From Escherichia phage alpha3: 6,087 nt of DNA. The notes beneath the pieces were generated by a model that was given only the letters and a program-made list of their open reading frames with translations, ran no database searches and was not told where the DNA came from. A program made the position numbers and the translations under genes. The DNA lies in sequence record NC_001330.1. One strand, given 5' to 3'. Below, one piece after another: positions 1 to 5,094 of this stretch (its first letter is position 1; each line of letters starts with the position of its first letter).

Positions 1-26
1 TTGTTGACATTCCCTAAACCCTTATG

Positions 27-65
27 AGACTCTTGCTTCAACGAAACGAAGTAGGAGTCTTTTTT
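27..65 (+). terminator. Candidate stem-loop plus T-run immediately downstream of gene H (across the circular junction)
   Basis: Seen in sequence: 27-39 (agactcttgcttc) pairs with 48-60 (gaagtaggagtct), a 13-bp stem including 2 G-U pairs, with an 8-nt loop (40-47) followed by TTTTT (61-65). The stem is AU-rich, so it is probably weak. The right arm contains the AGGAG ribosome-binding site of the ORF starting at 66. Confidence 0.3.
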
Positions 66-209
66 ATGAAACCAGCTCATCGCCTCTATCATCCTGTGCT
101 TGGTTCTTGGTTGTTTAAGTGCCCCGTTTATGTTCGTTATGAGTCCCTTCATCACGGTCGCCTCATTAAGGTTCGTGCTGTTCGTGACCTTTCCCGCGTC
201 AGCAGTTGA
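66..209 (+). CDS. Hypothetical small basic protein (47 aa; 61 aa if the upstream in-frame ATG at 24 is used), H-A region ORF1
   Basis: ATG at 66 preceded by AGGAG (53-57) with an 8-nt spacer. Product MKPAHRLYHPVLGSWLFKCPVYVRYESLHHGRLIKVRAVRDLSRVSS is rich in R/K/H. About half the codons end in T (hand count ~25/47), matching the bias of the known genes. Stop TGA 207-209 overlaps the TTG at 206 of the next ORF. No homolog recognised. Confidence 0.4.
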   Translation: MKPAHRLYHPVLGSWLFKCPVYVRYESLHHGRLIKVRAVRDLSRVSS

Positions 210-433
210 TTGCCAATCCTAAAAATTGCTTTGACGTTGTCATTGCTGAGATTGACGTTACTCACCTTTCTGTCACTTGGTATGATTTTGAAGCTGAAGA
301 GTATGCTGAGTGTGATTCCGGCACTATGGAGCTTGTTGTTTCTCAGGTAAATTCTGGCGAGGTTATTCGCTCATCTGAAGACCTGTTTGTTGATGTTGAT
401 GATATGGAATGGCCTTATGAAATTGCGGAGTAA
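206..433 (+). CDS. Hypothetical acidic protein (75 aa from TTG 206; 35 aa if it starts at ATG 326), H-A region ORF2
   Basis: Open frame from TTG 206 (TTGA overlap with the ORF1 stop) to TAA 431-433. Product is strongly acidic (many D/E, e.g. DLFVDVDDMEWPYEIAE). Frame-specific T-ending codons are about 41/75 by hand count, versus about 10/41 in the +1 frame of the same stretch. No clear ribosome-binding site before 206 or 326, so the start is uncertain and translation may be coupled to ORF1. Confidence 0.4.
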   Translation: MIANPKNCFDVVIAEIDVTHLSVTWYDFEAEEYAECDSGTMELVVSQVNSGEVIRSSEDLFVDVDDMEWPYEIAE

Positions 434-758: not shown

Positions 759-2243
759 ATGGCTACTGAAATCTTCTCTGATGTTGTTAAGTCTGTTTGG
801 TCGCACGCTACGGCTAAGCATGCTCATCTTCGTATGGCTGTTCAGGTTGATAATCGTAGTCGCCTCCTTTCTGACCTCGTTTATCAGTTGGAAAAACGCC
901 TTTCTGAAGAGACTCATTTGGATGATGAGACTCTTGCCATTTATGAATCTCAGACTGCCCTTCTGGAAGACCATATGGCACTGGTTCGGAAGTGTGCTGC
1001 CCAACTTGATAATAGTAACACTATAGACCACCGTACCCCTTTGGATGCCGAATGTGTTTTCCTGTTTGAAATGATTTGCCCGGGTGTTCGCTACGGTAAA
1101 ACGTTAAATTCTCTTTGGACTAAGTATGTTGTTCAATGGCCTGAGAAGTTAATCCGTCAGGAGTTAGACATGGTTAAGCCTTTATCCTTTAAGGATGAGG
1201 TTGCCAAGTACATGGAGAAGATGCAGGAAAAAACACGCAAAAATCGCATGACTCAGAAAGTTATTAATGAGATGCGTATTGCTCACCAAAAAGGCTGGTT
1301 CTTCGTATTTGATACGTTAACCCTTGCTGATGACCGTTTGCAGGCTTTTAATGAAAACCCCAATGCTCTTCGTGATTATTTCAGGACTGTTGGTCGAGCT
1401 GTTCTGCGCGCTGAAGGTCGTTCGGTCAAGGATTCCTACAACGACTGCTATCGCTATCTTTGTGTGCCGGAGTTTGGAGGTCAGCACGGCCGTCTTCATT
1501 GGCACGTTGTGCATATGGTGCGGACTCTTCCTTTGGGAAGTCATGACCCTAATTTCGGTCGCAAGGTACGTAATTATCGCCAGATTAACTCGTTCCGTGG
1601 CATGTGGCCTTATGGCTTCACGCAACCGATAGCTGTTCGCTATCAACATGACGCTTATTCCCGCAAAGGTTGGCTGTGGCCTGTTGACAAAACAGGAAAA
1701 GCAATGCAGAGTAAGCCGTATCAGGCGGTCGCATGGTATGTGACCAAGTATGTAGCCAAGCAATCTGACCAGCGTCAGAAAGCTATTACCGAGAGACAAA
1801 AGAAATGCAAGAATCCATTAATGGCAATCTGTCTGAAGAAAGAATTTCGGGTACGCAGCAGTCGGAAACTCGGAATGGAGCTCCCGTCAATGGCTCATCT
1901 GAGCAACAAGGTACTTCTGGAACTGAGCCGAATCAGCTTCGATTCCAGTCCTCTGTATCAGATAGTGAAAGAGAACGCCAAAAAGCAATTGACCTTGAAC
2001 ATCGGCGCGCTGCCTTTGCACGTCATTTTGGATGTGCGCCCGGAAGTGAGAAGCATGTTGAAAACTATTCGTCGTTTGATGAAAAAGACACCCGAGTTCA
2101 ATTGGCAGAGTTCTATCGCTTCAATGACGGTCACTTTAAAAAATGGGGATATTTCTGATGAAGCACGTCAATACATTATTGATGCAGGAATTACGCCTAC
2201 TGATTTGCGAGCTAAAGCGACTCAGACTTTCGGCGGTAAGTGA
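759..2243 (+). CDS. A: Replication initiation protein A (rolling-circle nickase/ligase), 494 aa
   Basis: Strong similarity to phiX174 protein A as recalled (FVFDTLTLADDRL, NPNALRDYFR, CVPEFG..GRLHWH, and the active-site tyrosine pair in YVTKYVAK). GAGGG ribosome-binding site 9 nt upstream. The in-frame stop at 708-710 excludes a longer N-terminus. Contains gene B, the (+) origin and the start of K. Confidence 0.93.
   Translation: MATEIFSDVVKSVWSHATAKHAHLRMAVQVDNRSRLLSDLVYQLEKRLSEETHLDDETLAIYESQTALLEDHMALVRKCAAQLDNSNTIDHRTPLDAECVFLFEMICPGVRYGKTLNSLWTKYVVQWPEKLIRQELDMVKPLSFKDEVAKYMEKMQEKTRKNRMTQKVINEMRIAHQKGWFFVFDTLTLADDRLQAFNENPNALRDYFRTVGRAVLRAEGRSVKDSYNDCYRYLCVPEFGGQHGRLHWHVVHMVRTLPLGSHDPNFGRKVRNYRQINSFRGMWPYGFTQPIAVRYQHDAYSRKGWLWPVDKTGKAMQSKPYQAVAWYVTKYVAKQSDQRQKAITERQKKCKNPLMAICLKKEFRVRSSRKLGMELPSMAHLSNKVLLELSRISFDSSPLYQIVKENAKKQLTLNIGALPLHVILDVRPEVRSMLKTIRRLMKKTPEFNWQSSIASMTVTLKNGDISDEARQYIIDAGITPTDLRAKATQTFGGK
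1002..1031 (+). other. Viral-strand (+) origin of rolling-circle replication, 30-bp protein A recognition/nick site
   Basis: CAACTTGATAATAGTAACACTATAGACCAC matches the phiX174 origin (CAACTTG/ATATTAATAACACTATAGACCAC as I recall it) apart from a few changes in the AT-rich centre. Predicted nick between G1008 and A1009. It encodes AQLDNSNTIDH of protein A. Confidence 0.8.
1221..2243 (+). CDS. A*: A* (internal in-frame restart product of gene A); start codon uncertain (ATG 1212, 1221 or 1248)
   Basis: By alignment the phiX174 A* start (MKSRRGFAIQ) falls on EKTRKNRMTQ here. The nearest in-frame ATG is 1221, with GGAG at 1214-1217 but only a 3-nt spacer. ATG 1248 has no ribosome-binding site. Confidence 0.3.
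   Translation: MQEKTRKNRMTQKVINEMRIAHQKGWFFVFDTLTLADDRLQAFNENPNALRDYFRTVGRAVLRAEGRSVKDSYNDCYRYLCVPEFGGQHGRLHWHVVHMVRTLPLGSHDPNFGRKVRNYRQINSFRGMWPYGFTQPIAVRYQHDAYSRKGWLWPVDKTGKAMQSKPYQAVAWYVTKYVAKQSDQRQKAITERQKKCKNPLMAICLKKEFRVRSSRKLGMELPSMAHLSNKVLLELSRISFDSSPLYQIVKENAKKQLTLNIGALPLHVILDVRPEVRSMLKTIRRLMKKTPEFNWQSSIASMTVTLKNGDISDEARQYIIDAGITPTDLRAKATQTFGGK
1805..2158 (+). CDS. B: Internal scaffolding protein B, 117 aa, encoded inside gene A in another frame
   Basis: Acidic/Q-rich N-terminus and a C-terminus QLAEFYRFNDGHFKKWGYF that matches phiX174 B (PAEFYRFHDAEVNTFGYF). Stop TGA 2156-2158 overlaps the K start. Confidence 0.9.
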   Translation: MQESINGNLSEERISGTQQSETRNGAPVNGSSEQQGTSGTEPNQLRFQSSVSDSERERQKAIDLEHRRAAFARHFGCAPGSEKHVENYSSFDEKDTRVQLAEFYRFNDGHFKKWGYF

Positions 2244-2319
2244 CCCGGATTTTTCTCAGGAGAAAATTCATGCTGAGCTCGACTCGCTACTATGCAAGTT
2301 ATCGCGCCACTTTGACTAA
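2158..2319 (+). CDS. K: Protein K (small non-essential protein), 53 aa, overlapping the end of A and the start of C in the third frame
   Basis: ATG 2158 overlaps the B stop (TGATG), as in phiX174. Product MKHVNTLLMQELRLLICELKRLRLSAVSDPDFSQEKIHAELDSLLCKLSRHFD resembles phiX174 K (KQELLLLVYELNRSGL...LAQLEKLLLCDLS). Below the size cutoff of the ORF track. The upstream in-frame ATG at 2143 is an alternative start. Confidence 0.75.
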   Translation: MKHVNTLLMQELRLLICELKRLRLSAVSDPDFSQEKIHAELDSLLCKLSRHFD

Positions 2320-2476
2320 GCAGTTGATGTTTCTTACAAAAGCTGACTTTACCAATGATGATGAGAAATGGCTTAATGCCTTTGGTAATCTTCTCCGTCA
2401 GTGGTTTCAGATTGAAGACTGGAAAGGCAATCATAAAAAATTGCTTGACGATCTGAAAAAACGTGATTATCTTTGA
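2270..2476 (+). CDS. C: Protein C (DNA maturation / stage III replication switch), 68 aa from ATG 2270
   Basis: RRKFMLSSTRYYASYRATL...DDEKWLNAFGNLLRQWF matches phiX174 C (MRKFDLSLRSSRSSYFATF...DEEKWLNMLGTFVKDWF). AGGAG (2258-2262) with a 7-nt spacer. The track's GTG 2240 start (GTGA overlap with the A stop) is the alternative. Confidence 0.85.
   Translation: MLSSTRYYASYRATLTKQLMFLTKADFTNDDEKWLNAFGNLLRQWFQIEDWKGNHKKLLDDLKKRDYL
2445..2473 (+). promoter_or_regulatory. Candidate pD promoter inside the 3' end of gene C
   Basis: -35 TTGACG (2445-2450), 17-nt spacer, -10 TATCTT (2468-2473). It sits at the position homologous to the phiX174 pD element (TTGACA...TACTATCT) and about 30 nt upstream of the D start. 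Confidence 0.45.
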
Positions 2477-3035: not shown

Positions 3036-3054
3036 GGGCCCTTCGGGGCCTTTT
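3036..3054 (+). terminator. J-F intergenic hairpin with UUCG tetraloop plus T-run (TJ-like terminator / RNA stability element)
   Basis: GGCCC (3037-3041), TTCG loop, GGGCC (3046-3050), with a flanking G-U pair 3036/3051, then TTTT (3051-3054). Confidence 0.5.
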
Positions 3055-3066
3055 AAGGAAATTCAA

Positions 3067-4362
3067 ATGTCTAATGTACAAACTTCCGCTGAACGTGAAA
3101 TTGTTGACCTCTCTCATCTTGCCTTTGACTGTGGCATGCTTGGTCGTCTGAAGACTGTTTCATGGACTCCTGTTATCGCTGGCGATTCCTTTGAGCTTGA
3201 TGCTGTTGGTGCTTTGCGTCTTTCCCCTCTGCGTCGTGGTTTAGCTATTGATTCTAAGGTTGATTTTTTCACCTTCTACATTCCGCATCGTCATGTTTAT
3301 GGCGACCAGTGGATTCAGTTTATGCGTGATGGTGTTAATGCTCAGCCTCTGCCTTCTGTTACTTGCAATCGCTATCCGGACCATGCTGGTTATGTAGGTA
3401 CTATTGTTCCTGCAAATAACCGTATTCCTAAGTTTTTGCATCAGAGCTATCTGAACATTTACAATAACTATTTCCGTGCCCCGTGGATGCCTGAGCGTAC
3501 CGAGGCCAACCCGTCTAATCTTAATGAGGATGATGCTCGTTATCGCTTCCGTTGCTGCCACCTTAAAAATATTTGGTCTGCTCCGCTGCCTCCGGAAACC
3601 AAATTGGCTGAAGAAATGGGTATTGAAAGCAATTCCATTGATATTATGGGTTTGCAAGCCGCTTATGCGCAGCTTCACACTGAGCAGGAGCGTACTTACT
3701 TTATGCAGCGTTACCGTGATGTTATCTCCAGCTTTGGCGGTTCAACCTCCTATGATGCCGATAACCGACCGTTGCTTGTTATGCACACCGACTTCTGGGC
3801 TTCCGGTTACGACGTTGACGGTACCGACCAATCTTCCCTTGGACAATTCTCTGGTCGAGTCCAGCAGACGTTTAAACACTCAGTGCCGCGATTCTTCGTG
3901 CCTGAGCATGGTGTCATGATGACTTTGGCTCTGATTCGCTTCCCGCCTATCAGTCCGTTGGAGCACCATTATCTTGCTGGTAAGTCTCAGTTAACCTATA
4001 CCGACCTTGCTGGCGACCCGGCTCTGATTGGTAACTTGCCTCCTCGCGAGATTAGTTATCGAGATCTGTTCCGTGATGGTCGTTCTGGTATTAAGATTAA
4101 AGTTGCCGAGTCTATTTGGTATCGTACTCATCCTGATTACGTTAACTTTAAGTATCATGATTTGCATGGATTCCCGTTCCTTGATGATGCGCCTGGTACA
4201 TCTACTGGTGATAATCTTCAGGAAGCTATCCTTGTTCGTCATCAGGACTATGATGCTTGCTTCCAGTCTCAGCAGTTGCTACAGTGGAACAAACAGGCTC
4301 GCTATAACGTTAGTGTTTATCGCCATATGCCTACTGTACGTGATTCCATTATGACCTCTTAA
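3067..4362 (+). CDS. F: Major capsid protein F, 431 aa
   Basis: Extensive similarity to phiX174 F (MSN.QT.AER...DLSHL.F..G..GRL.T...TPVIAGDSFE.DAVGALRLSPLRRGLAIDS.VD.FTFY.PHRHVYG...QLLQWN...RDSIMTS). AAGGA (3055-3059) with a 7-nt spacer. The upstream in-frame ATG 3034 used by the track lies inside the hairpin and is not the start. Confidence 0.95.
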   Translation: MSNVQTSAEREIVDLSHLAFDCGMLGRLKTVSWTPVIAGDSFELDAVGALRLSPLRRGLAIDSKVDFFTFYIPHRHVYGDQWIQFMRDGVNAQPLPSVTCNRYPDHAGYVGTIVPANNRIPKFLHQSYLNIYNNYFRAPWMPERTEANPSNLNEDDARYRFRCCHLKNIWSAPLPPETKLAEEMGIESNSIDIMGLQAAYAQLHTEQERTYFMQRYRDVISSFGGSTSYDADNRPLLVMHTDFWASGYDVDGTDQSSLGQFSGRVQQTFKHSVPRFFVPEHGVMMTLALIRFPPISPLEHHYLAGKSQLTYTDLAGDPALIGNLPPREISYRDLFRDGRSGIKIKVAESIWYRTHPDYVNFKYHDLHGFPFLDDAPGTSTGDNLQEAILVRHQDYDACFQSQQLLQWNKQARYNVSVYRHMPTVRDSIMTS

Positions 4363-4367
4363 TTCAT

Positions 4368-4383
4368 GGGCCTTCGGGCCTTT
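4368..4383 (+). terminator. F-G intergenic hairpin with UUCG tetraloop plus T-run (TF-like)
   Basis: GGCC (4369-4372), TTCG loop, GGCC (4377-4380), then TTT. Near-duplicate of the J-F module. Confidence 0.45.
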
Positions 4384-4395
4384 AAGGATTTATCT

Positions 4396-4959
4396 ATGTA
4401 TCAGAATTTTGTCACTAAGCATGATACTGCCATTCAGACTTCCCGTTTTTCTGTTACTGGCAATGTTATTCCTGCTGCTCCTACTGGTAATATTCCTGTC
4501 ATCAATGGTGGTAGTATTACCGCTGAGCGTGCTGTTGTTAATCTTTACGCTAATATGAATGTTAGCACTTCTTCTGATGGTTCTTTCATTGTTGCTATGA
4601 AGGTTGATACTTCTCCGACTGACCCTAATTGTGTCATCTCTGCTGGTGTTAACCTTAGTTTTGCTGGTACCTCATACCCGATTGTTGGTATTGTTCGTTT
4701 TGAGTCTGCTTCTGAACAGCCTACTTCTATTGCTGGTAGTGAAGTTGAGCATTACCCAATTGAAATGTCTGTTGGTTCTGGTGGTGTTTGTTCTGCTCGC
4801 GATTGTGCTACTGTTGATATTCATCCTCGTACTTCTGGTAATAATGTTTTTGTTGGTGTGATTTGTTCTAGCGCTAAATGGACCTCCGGTCGTGTGATTG
4901 GTACCATCGCTACGACTCAGGTTATTCATGAATACCAAGTCCTTCAGCCGCTTAAATAA
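4396..4959 (+). CDS. G: Major spike protein G, 187 aa
   Basis: The N-terminus [11 protein letters not shown] and the C-terminus (RFESAS...[12 protein letters not shown]...VLQPLK) are similar to phiX174/G4 G (MFQTFISRHN...RFESS...PRTPGNNVYVG...CLQPLK). AAGGA (4384-4388) with a 7-nt spacer. The track's upstream ATG 4366 lies in the hairpin. Confidence 0.92.
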
Positions 4960-4984
4960 AAGGCTGCCGCACTCCCGGTTAGAT

Positions 4985-5069
4985 GCCTGCCCAGTGTAGG
5001 GCAGACCGAGCCGTACGGAGATACCCGATAAACTAGGAACGTGGAAGGCGTTAGCCGCCTTCCCTCCTG
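4985..5069 (+). other. Putative complementary (-) strand origin: primase (DnaG) recognition region in the G-H spacer
   Basis: The 135-nt G-H spacer contains a 6-bp hairpin CTGCCC/GGGCAG (4987-5004, loop AGTGTA), the palindrome CCGTACGG (5011-5018), and an 8-bp hairpin GGAAGGCG/CGCCTTCC (5043-5063, loop TTAGC) followed 4 nt later by CTG (5067-5069). G4-type origins are hairpins with a 5'-CTG-3' primer start on their 3' side. Confidence 0.45.
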
Positions 5070-5094
5070 CTAAGCCCAAAAAGGAGTTACAGCG

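Follow-up and report, generated by a model that had tools for sequence, protein, structure and literature searches.

The A/B/K/C region is a textbook block of overlapping genes in the coliphage alpha3, a relative of phiX174 with an annotation that has been public for decades. In phiX174 (NC_001422.1) and G4 (NC_001420.2), gene K starts on the last base of the B stop codon (B ends and K begins at position 51 in phiX174 and at 1638 in G4), and the A stop and C start codons overlap in an ATGA, a second point that is read in three frames. Pavesi earlier analysed overprinting in alpha3, phiX174, and G4 (as cited in PMC8227390). The DNA analysed here, which we call the window, is a stretch of 6,087 nucleotides from Escherichia phage alpha3 (NC_001330.1). 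It is 99.9% identical to DQ085810.2, in which A, B, K, and C are annotated at the window coordinates plus 1; genome-wide, the two records differ by two 1-nt indels and four substitutions, and the only difference in the A/B/K/C block is 2449 C>T, which is silent in C. The sister records phiK (X60323.1) and St-1 (NC_012868.1) have the same gene frames and overlaps as alpha3, phiX174 and G4 share its gene order, its frames, and the A, B, and C families, and the block aligns across 15 alpha3-clade sequences with no gaps. Based on these comparisons and on the family assignments below, we consider with a probability of about 90% that alpha3 carries the canonical Bullavirinae early-gene block, encoded on one strand with A and A* in frame 0, B and then C in frame 2, and K in frame 1.

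All four genes were found at their annotated coordinates and in their expected families. Gene A (759-2243, plus strand, start position modulo 3 = 0), the replication initiator, runs from ATG to TGA over 494 aa and matches Phage_GPA (PF05840) with an E value of 2.1e-58 and 198.3 bits, against a gathering cut-off of 31.4; A is also annotated in DQ085810.2, and the block studied covers its last 439 nt. Gene B, for the internal scaffolding protein (1805-2158, plus strand, modulo 3 = 2, thus in the +2 frame of A), encodes 117 aa, of which residues 10-117 match Phage_B (PF02304; 1.3e-49, 168.1 bits, cut-off 27), with a further match to phrog_1473 (4.5e-51); its ATG is kept in 15 of 15 clade sequences. 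Gene C, annotated in GenBank as acting in DNA maturation (2270-2476, plus strand, modulo 3 = 2), encodes 68 aa and matches Phage_C (PF12025; 8.3e-10, 38.8 bits, cut-off 25) and phrog_1465 (1e-31). Gene K (2158-2319, plus strand, modulo 3 = 1, in the +1 frame relative to A and the +2 frame relative to C) encodes 53 aa assigned to phrog_8511; its first 86 nt (2158-2243) lie over A, the next 26 nt (2244-2269) belong to no other gene, and the last 50 nt (2270-2319) lie over C, so that K bridges the end of A and the beginning of C as it does in phiX174 and G4. A preliminary description of this DNA had placed B wholly inside A, K across the A/C junction, and the four genes in three frames, and all of its coordinates hold on re-examination. 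It had not listed A*, the product of an internal in-frame start of A (1272-2243, plus strand), whose ATG we read from the sequence and which is annotated in the St-1 RefSeq record at 1271-2242, equivalent to window position 1272 after a 1-nt offset in gene coordinates; with this start, the block would yield five polypeptides. The gene map as such is ordinary and was already known from public annotation.

How easily such overlaps arise depends on the frame. Third codon positions are 48% T, a bias that leaves fewer stops in the +1 frame, which K uses over A, and more in the +2 frame, which B uses: the stop density is 0.03 in the +1 frame and 0.10 in the +2 frame, against 0.06 for either under uniform codon usage. 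The idea that overprinted genes arise readily under the codon bias of this genome is thus correct for the +1 frame, where stops are halved, and wrong for the +2 frame, where they are roughly doubled. The open frame of B exists against the codon bias, and it is improbable by chance: 0 of 1000 synonymous recodings of A with phage codon usage left the +2 frame open over 129 codons, and under uniform usage the probability was 0.002. In its own frame, B has a pN/pS of 7.6 in the N-terminal half and 0.75 in the C-terminal half. The same depletion of +1 stops is seen in gene D, where the +1 stop rate is 0.027, compared with 0.076 under uniform codon usage, and where gene E (2676-2903 in DQ085810.2) is, like K over A, a +1 overprint; E lies entirely within D, in contrast to the terminal or bridging overlap that K forms with two genes.

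The B/K junction is the pentanucleotide TGATG (2156-2160, plus strand), in which the B stop TGA (2156-2158) and the K start ATG (2158-2160) have base 2158 in common, as the preliminary description had noted and as in phiX174 and G4. Since base 2158 also belongs to a codon of A, it is the sole nucleotide read in all three frames. The junction is TGATG in 13 of the 15 clade sequences and TAATG in the other 2, so that the B-stop/K-start overlap is kept in every one, and K starts on the B stop in the context ggatatttcTGATG in alpha3, phiX174, and five G4-clade genomes. A weak Shine-Dalgarno-like motif, GGGGA (2145-2149, plus strand), precedes the K ATG by 8 nt and may serve in its initiation. It is invariant in 15/15 sequences, at positions that the codons of A and B also constrain, and phiX174 and G4 have cGGAt or tGGAt at its place. 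An in-frame ATG at 2143, likewise absent from the preliminary description, would give a K of 58 aa (MGIFLMKHV...), and 16 nt (2143-2158) would then be read in all three frames. All 15 clade sequences have this ATG, no stop interrupts the frame from 2140 onward, and the St-1 RefSeq record NC_012868.1 annotates K from the equivalent position; the conservation of 2143-2157 is uninformative, however, because A and B both read these bases. We consider the upstream start unlikely, given that this ATG is lacking in phiX174 and G4, where K starts at TGATG, that the PHROG model and hhalign both take the methionine at 2158 as residue 1, and that the sequence preceding 2143 (cactttaaaaaATG) contains no purine-rich motif, in contrast to the GGGGA 8 nt before 2158.

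The similarity of K to its counterparts is much less evident than that of the other genes. The match to phrog_8511 (9.5e-40) covers residues 1-53 of a 53-position model, and PHROGs is alone in matching K, for which Pfam and NCBIfam returned no model. Against phrog_1713, the family of the phiX174 and G4 proteins, E is 0.033, and cross-family matches within PHROG give E values of 0.03-0.08. BLASTP aligned alpha3 K with phiX174 K at 45% identity over 47 residues with 10 gaps (pairwise E = 0.001) and gave no alignment with G4 K, probably owing to composition adjustment on the leucine-rich N terminus, as a MAFFT alignment makes a similarity of the form TLLMQELrLL..EL.R visible. When phiX174 K was searched by tblastn at E<=10 against the full set of phage records, no alpha3-clade record was among the 40 matches listed. 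Homology emerged in profile-profile comparison: hhalign aligned the alpha3 K group with the phiX174/G4 K proteins at E = 1.5e-5 and a probability of 80%, collinear from residue 1. Together with synteny, this result supports homology of alpha3 K with phiX174/G4 K, detectable at profile level. The suggestion that K is recognisable by similarity therefore stands for profiles and gene order and is weak for pairwise searches, which are marginal; the protein alignment that had been proposed as a check did find similarity, but only narrowly. Conservation of the A and C frames, encoded by the very same bases, also confounds any such similarity.

This confounding is part of the view that the K frame is a nonfunctional by-product, kept open by the depletion of stops in the +1 frame and resembling phiX174 K because A and C are conserved. 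The frame does remain open in 87% of synonymous recodings over A and in 64% over C, so an open frame is expected by chance and the support for K has to come from its substitution pattern. We analysed this pattern in 14 distinct alpha3-clade sequences. The synonymous diversity of A falls 7-fold exactly over K, from a pS of 0.232 to 0.033, and variable third positions of A number 3 of 27 in the A/K overlap against 160 of 348 in A-only sequence (Fisher p = 4e-4, a value obtained from 27 codons in genomes that are 92-96% identical, with sites taken as independent and phylogeny ignored). The pN/pS of the K frame is 0.20 overall, compared with 1.9 in A-only sequence read in this phase, and it drops to 0.046 in the spacer that K alone occupies, where the variable sites include five synonymous third positions and no second positions of K codons. 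The same test in the G4 clade replicated the signal (2/26 versus 27/92, p = 0.02). All 15 sequences keep the K open frame and its ATG. Two of the 15, ID21 (62 aa) and MG945254 (60 aa), have lost the stop, which adds 7-9 residues, so that the C terminus of K is loosely constrained. The comparative evidence indicates that K is a genuine gene, subject to purifying selection in nature and no mere side effect of the frames of A and C.

Evidence from other phages bears on both sides of this question. With phiX174 templates, mass spectrometry revealed a K peptide (PMC6883844), and the annotation of KF044310.1, a G4-clade phage, notes that K is nonessential and that the burst size is 3- to 6-fold lower when K is absent. 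On the other hand, saturation mutagenesis of phiX174 found K nonsense variants, and missense variants that affect K only, to be neutral in laboratory assays, with no fitness cost (bioRxiv 10.64898/2026.07.25.740675). Ribosome profiling, which had been suggested as a further check, was searched for in the literature on phiX174-like phages and none was found; purifying selection on the K frame would be indirect support for the protein being made. Altogether, although the neutral nonsense variants, the variable stop, and the marginal pairwise similarity are what a nonfunctional frame would give, we disfavour this reading and hold it to be quite improbable. An AF2 model of K has helices at residues 2-26 and 34-52 with a pLDDT of 75, which predicts a small product of helix-loop-helix type, folded as a helical hairpin.

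A different source for the low synonymous variation of A at 2161-2240 would be an element acting at the nucleotide level, such as an RNA or single-stranded DNA structure or a signal for translation or packaging. The ribosome-binding site of C follows closely downstream of this region, and with 27 codons only, the cause of the constraint is not assignable with certainty. RNA structure as the cause was rejected: the fold of 2140-2275 has a z score of -0.95 relative to shuffled sequences, with 32 of 200 shuffles folding equally well, no covariation backs the consensus fold, and Rfam has no match in the window. Moreover, the substitutions are frame specific. Those at 2178, 2199, and 2200 are silent in K and change amino acids in A, and K second positions in the spacer carry none, which makes a structural element an unlikely source of the pattern; we regard a nucleotide-level element of any kind as very improbable. 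Selection on the K protein is the reading we prefer. The pN/pS of A rises from 0.06 in A-only sequence to 0.67 in its last 27 codons over K, so that the K frame (0.20) appears more constrained than the A tail within the overlap.

Downstream, alpha3 departs from phiX174 and G4. Where these have the ATGA that overlaps A and C, alpha3 has GTGA, followed by an 18-nt insertion (2244-2261, plus strand, in a three-genus DNA alignment that leaves the boundaries ambiguous by a few bases), and its A and C have no mutual overlap. The insertion coincides with the 6-residue gap in the hhalign and MAFFT alignments and adds six codons to K that encode its loop; with a shorter tail, alpha3 K has 53 aa versus 56. 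The alignments indicate that this insertion, which is specific to the alpha3 clade, removed the A/C overlap and created the 26-nt stretch read as K only, in which a putative ribosome-binding site of C also lies. The latter is AGGAG (2258-2262, plus strand), 7 nt before the C ATG and assigned from its consensus and spacing; it falls in K codons Q34-E35 and is invariant in 15/15 sequences. The alpha3 C start lies four codons further into the homologous sequence than that of phiX174 and G4, with this AGGAG of its own, and C has 68 aa compared with 86 and 84 aa in phiX174 and G4. A C protein of 78 aa starting at GTG 2240, in the GTGA that overlaps the A stop, would preserve the coupling provided by ATGA in phiX174 and G4; this GTG is in the C frame, is positionally homologous to the phiX174/G4 C start, and occurs in all 15 sequences. 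Its conservation is accounted for by the conserved Lys-stop of A (AAG TGA), and ATG 2270 is preceded by a perfect AGGAG at 7 nt. In addition, 5 of the 8 variable sites in 2244-2269 are second positions that would change amino acids in the extension, and the Phage_C model, whose positions 8-66 of 68 correspond to residues 8-66 of C, matches the 68-aa form residue for residue. On the substitution pattern and the Pfam register we reject GTG 2240 as scarcely tenable and place the start of C at ATG 2270 instead of at the GTG in the ancestral ATGA position.

B would be initiated internally on an A-containing mRNA. Ribosomes that terminate on B at TGATG would restart at the overlapping ATG, so that translation of K would be mainly coupled to that of B, and the weak GGGGA 8 nt upstream may aid the restart. 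C would be translated independently from its own strong AGGAG. A promoter scan by consensus was uninformative: it detected nothing like P_B ahead of gene B and gave three sites versus 1.8 expected in shuffled sequences, among them a weak promoter-like TTGACG-17-TATCTT (2445-2473, plus strand) within the 3' end of C and ahead of D. In the phiX174 mutagenesis preprint, promoter pD is located at this place, within gene C (bioRxiv 10.64898/2026.07.25.740675).

We tentatively propose, with less than even confidence, that K is the dominant constrained frame over the relaxed last ∼27 residues of A and that selection on K recurs in two genera despite the dispensability of K in phiX174 under laboratory conditions. 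If so, the role of K would be condition dependent in natural hosts and missed by standard fitness assays, and the 18-nt insertion of the alpha3 clade would have been tolerated because it lies within the K loop. The block itself matters little for genome biology, and its practical value is calibration. In judging shadow ORFs in the alpha3 genome, a long open +1 frame means little, whereas a long open +2 frame is informative. A brief application of the substitution test suggests that the unannotated ORFs of the H-A region merit their own evaluation. Substitution patterns within the clade, namely, the suppression of synonymous variation in the host gene and the pN/pS of the candidate frame, separate real overprinted genes, of which K is an example, from shadow ORFs.

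When annotated phage records were searched by megablast with the full window, the best match was DQ085810.2, Escherichia phage alpha3 (Bullavirinae, Alphatrevirus), which covers 100% of the window at 99.9% identity; next came St-1, Lilleven, and phiK at 90 to 92%, and then more phages of the alpha3 clade at 83 to 86%. Direct translation placed gene A at 759-2243 (plus strand, frame 0), B at 1805-2158 (plus strand, frame 2; nested entirely within A), K at 2158-2319 (plus strand, frame 1), and C at 2270-2476 (plus strand, frame 2), in agreement with every coordinate and frame of the preliminary description. Bases 2156-2160 indeed read TGATG. Base 2158 ends the B stop codon, opens the K start codon, and lies within the A codon GAT; no other nucleotide is read in each of the three frames. 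K shares 86 nt with A and 50 nt with C, and 26 nt belong to it alone. A fifth polypeptide missing from that description, A*, begins at an in-frame start at 1272, placed via the St-1 annotation. Family searches of the block matched Phage_GPA (2e-58), Phage_B (1e-49), and Phage_C (8e-10) in Pfam and phrog_1473, phrog_8511, and phrog_1465 in PHROGs, establishing the family memberships together with the gene map. The same arrangement is annotated in DQ085810.2 (A, 760-2244; B, 1806-2159; K, 2159-2320; C, 2271-2477), where all coordinates are higher by one owing to an indel of one nucleotide at position 192 of the window, and in the phiK record; the St-1 RefSeq record differs from the alpha3 record in adding A* and in beginning K at an upstream in-frame ATG. 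The overlap is a correctly read, annotated feature that was already known. The two alpha3 records are further separated by two G>C changes (335 and 338), a C>T change at 2449 that leaves the C protein unaltered and falls within the -35 hexamer of a P_D-like site, a C>G change within F (3544), and an indel of one nucleotide in the hairpin region between F and G (4378), all of which may be sequencing corrections between the older and the newer record.

From the sequence and from what is generally known of bacterial translation, we propose that B would be made by internal initiation, C from its own strong ribosome-binding site, and K by termination-reinitiation at TGATG, assisted by GGGGA, a weak motif lying 8 nt before the start. 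K may start at 2158, or also at 2143, a choice that conservation cannot decide because the stretch between the two is also read by A and B. K has been annotated for long, and an annotation note for a phage of the G4 clade states that it is not essential and that it influences burst size. A K peptide was detected by mass spectrometry with phiX174 templates (PMC6883844), and phiX174 variants with nonsense changes in K, or with missense changes affecting K alone, were neutral in the assay of a saturation mutagenesis study from 2026 (bioRxiv 10.64898/2026.07.25.740675). Earlier analyses of overprinting in phiX174, alpha3, and G4 exist (Pavesi, as cited in PMC8227390).

The statement that K is recognizable by similarity holds at the level of profiles but is marginal in pairwise comparison. 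No model in Pfam or NCBIfam matches K, and in PHROGs the alpha3 protein sits in its own family of 53 residues, from which the phiX174/G4 K family (phrog_1713) is reached only at an E value of 0.033. BLASTP aligned alpha3 K with phiX174 K (45% identity over 47 residues, ten gap positions, pairwise E = 0.001) but gave no alignment with G4 K, and a tblastn search of 50,697 phage records with phiX174 K (E ≤ 10) had no record of the alpha3 clade among the 40 matches listed. Comparison of a profile of nine K sequences of the alpha3 clade with one of six from the phiX/G4 clade gave an E value of 1.5e-5 and a probability of 80%, with 46 collinear columns from residue 1 and a six-residue insertion in alpha3. 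Similarity in the K frame is confounded, since this DNA also codes for the conserved end of A and for the beginning of C. The TGATG start and its context, ggatatttcTGATG, are common to the three genera represented by alpha3, phiX174, and G4. Homology of alpha3 K to the K proteins of phiX174 and G4 is thus well supported, and formal alignment does find, if only narrowly, the similarity on which the preliminary description relied.

The junction of A and C shows a rearrangement specific to alpha3. In phiX174 and G4, the A end and the C start overlap as ATGA, whereas alpha3 has GTGA at the same place, followed by an 18-nt insertion (∼2244-2261) relative to both. In the K alignments this insertion corresponds to a gap of six residues, and in the protein it falls within a predicted loop between two K helices (AlphaFold2: residues 2-26 and 34-52, mean pLDDT 75). 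It also contains most of an AGGAG (2258-2262) located 7 nt upstream of the C ATG at 2270, which aligns to codon 5 of phiX174 C (RRKF-MLSS versus MRKF-DLS). We also considered a start of C at GTG 2240, which shares the C frame. Eight sites vary within 2244-2269; if C began at this GTG, five of them would fall on second codon positions and alter the protein. When these sites are read as K, five are synonymous third positions and no second position varies. Pfam Phage_C moreover aligns residue for residue to the 68-aa C. GTG 2240 was accordingly rejected, and the C start is established at ATG 2270. The description of an insertion rewiring the A/K/C junction is a modest new point that published alpha3 comparisons may already contain.

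The preliminary description further held that overprinted genes arise readily under the codon bias of this genome, in which T occupies 47.6% of third codon positions. We recoded each gene synonymously 1000 times with either the phage's own or uniform codon usage. The stop rate of the +1 frame was ∼0.03 with own usage versus ∼0.06 with uniform usage, and that of the +2 frame was ∼0.10 versus ∼0.06; the claim is therefore correct for the +1 frame and reversed for the +2 frame. The K frame stayed open in 87% of recodings over A (+1) and in 64% over C, while the 129-codon open run containing B (+2 of A) was obtained in 0/1000 recodings with own usage and with P = 0.002 under uniform usage. The bias thus makes +1 ORFs cheap, among them K over A, E over D, and long unannotated +1 ORFs in F and G, and makes +2 ORFs such as B costly. 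This opposite effect on the two frames is a modest new point. Unannotated plus-strand ORFs of 85 to 147 aa lie inside F, G, and A (3476-3919, 4028-4354, 4604-4861, and 1324-1632), all in the +1 frame of the host gene, where T-rich third positions deplete stops. Runs of such length are expected by chance in the recodings (e.g., F +1: observed, 154; mean, 117; P = 0.075), and these are probably shadow ORFs. In B itself, own-frame pN/pS is 2.7, similar to the value for a +2 frame of A without annotation (3.3); the N-terminal half (1805-1978) reaches 7.6, which matches or exceeds what an unannotated shadow frame of A shows, and the C-terminal half 0.75. It follows that B shows constraint of its own only in the C-terminal half, and its N-terminal sequence appears to be almost entirely dictated by A.

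Other unannotated ORFs lie between H and A. A 1-nt deletion in the C run at 192, relative to DQ085810.2, splits a 122-aa ORF in window 24-433 (24..209 and 206..433). This ORF (DQ085810.2 66-434, ATG at 66) is intact in 9/10 genomes of the alpha3 clade and frameshifted in St-1, has a pN/pS of 0.40 versus 1.1 to 1.6 in the other two frames, and matched nothing in Pfam or PHROGs; the alpha3 record leaves it without annotation, and the Lilleven record lists it as a hypothetical protein. ORF 437-526, present in 10/10 genomes with a pN/pS of 0.35, a value that is not decisive, would encode a 29-aa hydrophobic peptide, METVIGKFIALAIVALMLYGIACLIRRFP, and its stop overlaps, as GTGA, the GTG start of ORF 523-699 (58 aa). 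The latter is kept in 9/10 genomes, and its pN/pS of 0.11, versus 1.1 to 1.9 in the other frames, is a clear coding signature; neither ORF had a family match. M25640.1 places ribosome-binding sites at window 53-57, 427-430, and 513-518. GC-rich hairpins occur between J and F (gggcccttcggggcc, 3036-3052) and between F and G (gggccttcgggcc, 4366-4380), and the gap separating G from H holds a long stretch rich in GC (4960-5094); by their position, these are probably terminators or origin-related structures.

Selection on K was assessed in an alignment of 759-2476 from 15 alpha3-clade sequences (92 to 96% identity, no gaps), with statistics on 14 distinct sequences because one phage is represented twice, by the window and by DQ085810.2. 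The K ATG, the overlap with the B stop, and the open K frame are present in 15/15 sequences, the overlap reading TGATG in 13 and TAATG in 2. In ID21 and MG945254, T>G at 2317, silent in C, changes the K stop TAA (2317-2319) to GAA, and read-through of 9 and 7 codons yields proteins of 62 and 60 aa; the C terminus of K therefore tolerates extension. Third positions of A codons vary at 160/348 sites where A is read alone, at 37/117 in the A/B overlap, and at 3/27 in the A/K overlap (Fisher p = 4e-4 versus A-only), and synonymous diversity (pS) in A is 0.232 in A-only sequence and 0.033 in the A/K overlap. The K-frame pN/pS is 0.20 for the whole of K and 0.046 in the K-only spacer, compared with 1.9 for the same phase in A-only sequence. 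In the overlap, the A-frame pN/pS is 0.67, versus 0.06 elsewhere in A, and sites 2178, 2199, and 2200 alter the A protein yet are silent in K, so that the K frame is more constrained there than A. RNA structure as an explanation of this constraint was unsupported: the fold of 2140-2275 had a z score of -0.95 versus shuffles, the consensus fold showed no covariation, and Rfam gave no match. Five genomes of the G4 clade carry the same signal (2/26 versus 27/92, p = 0.02), in tests that, as in alpha3, use few sites from closely related genomes and ignore phylogeny. These comparisons establish selection on the K frame and add a modest new point, namely, quantitative evidence that K is under purifying selection in two genera though it is dispensable in the laboratory.
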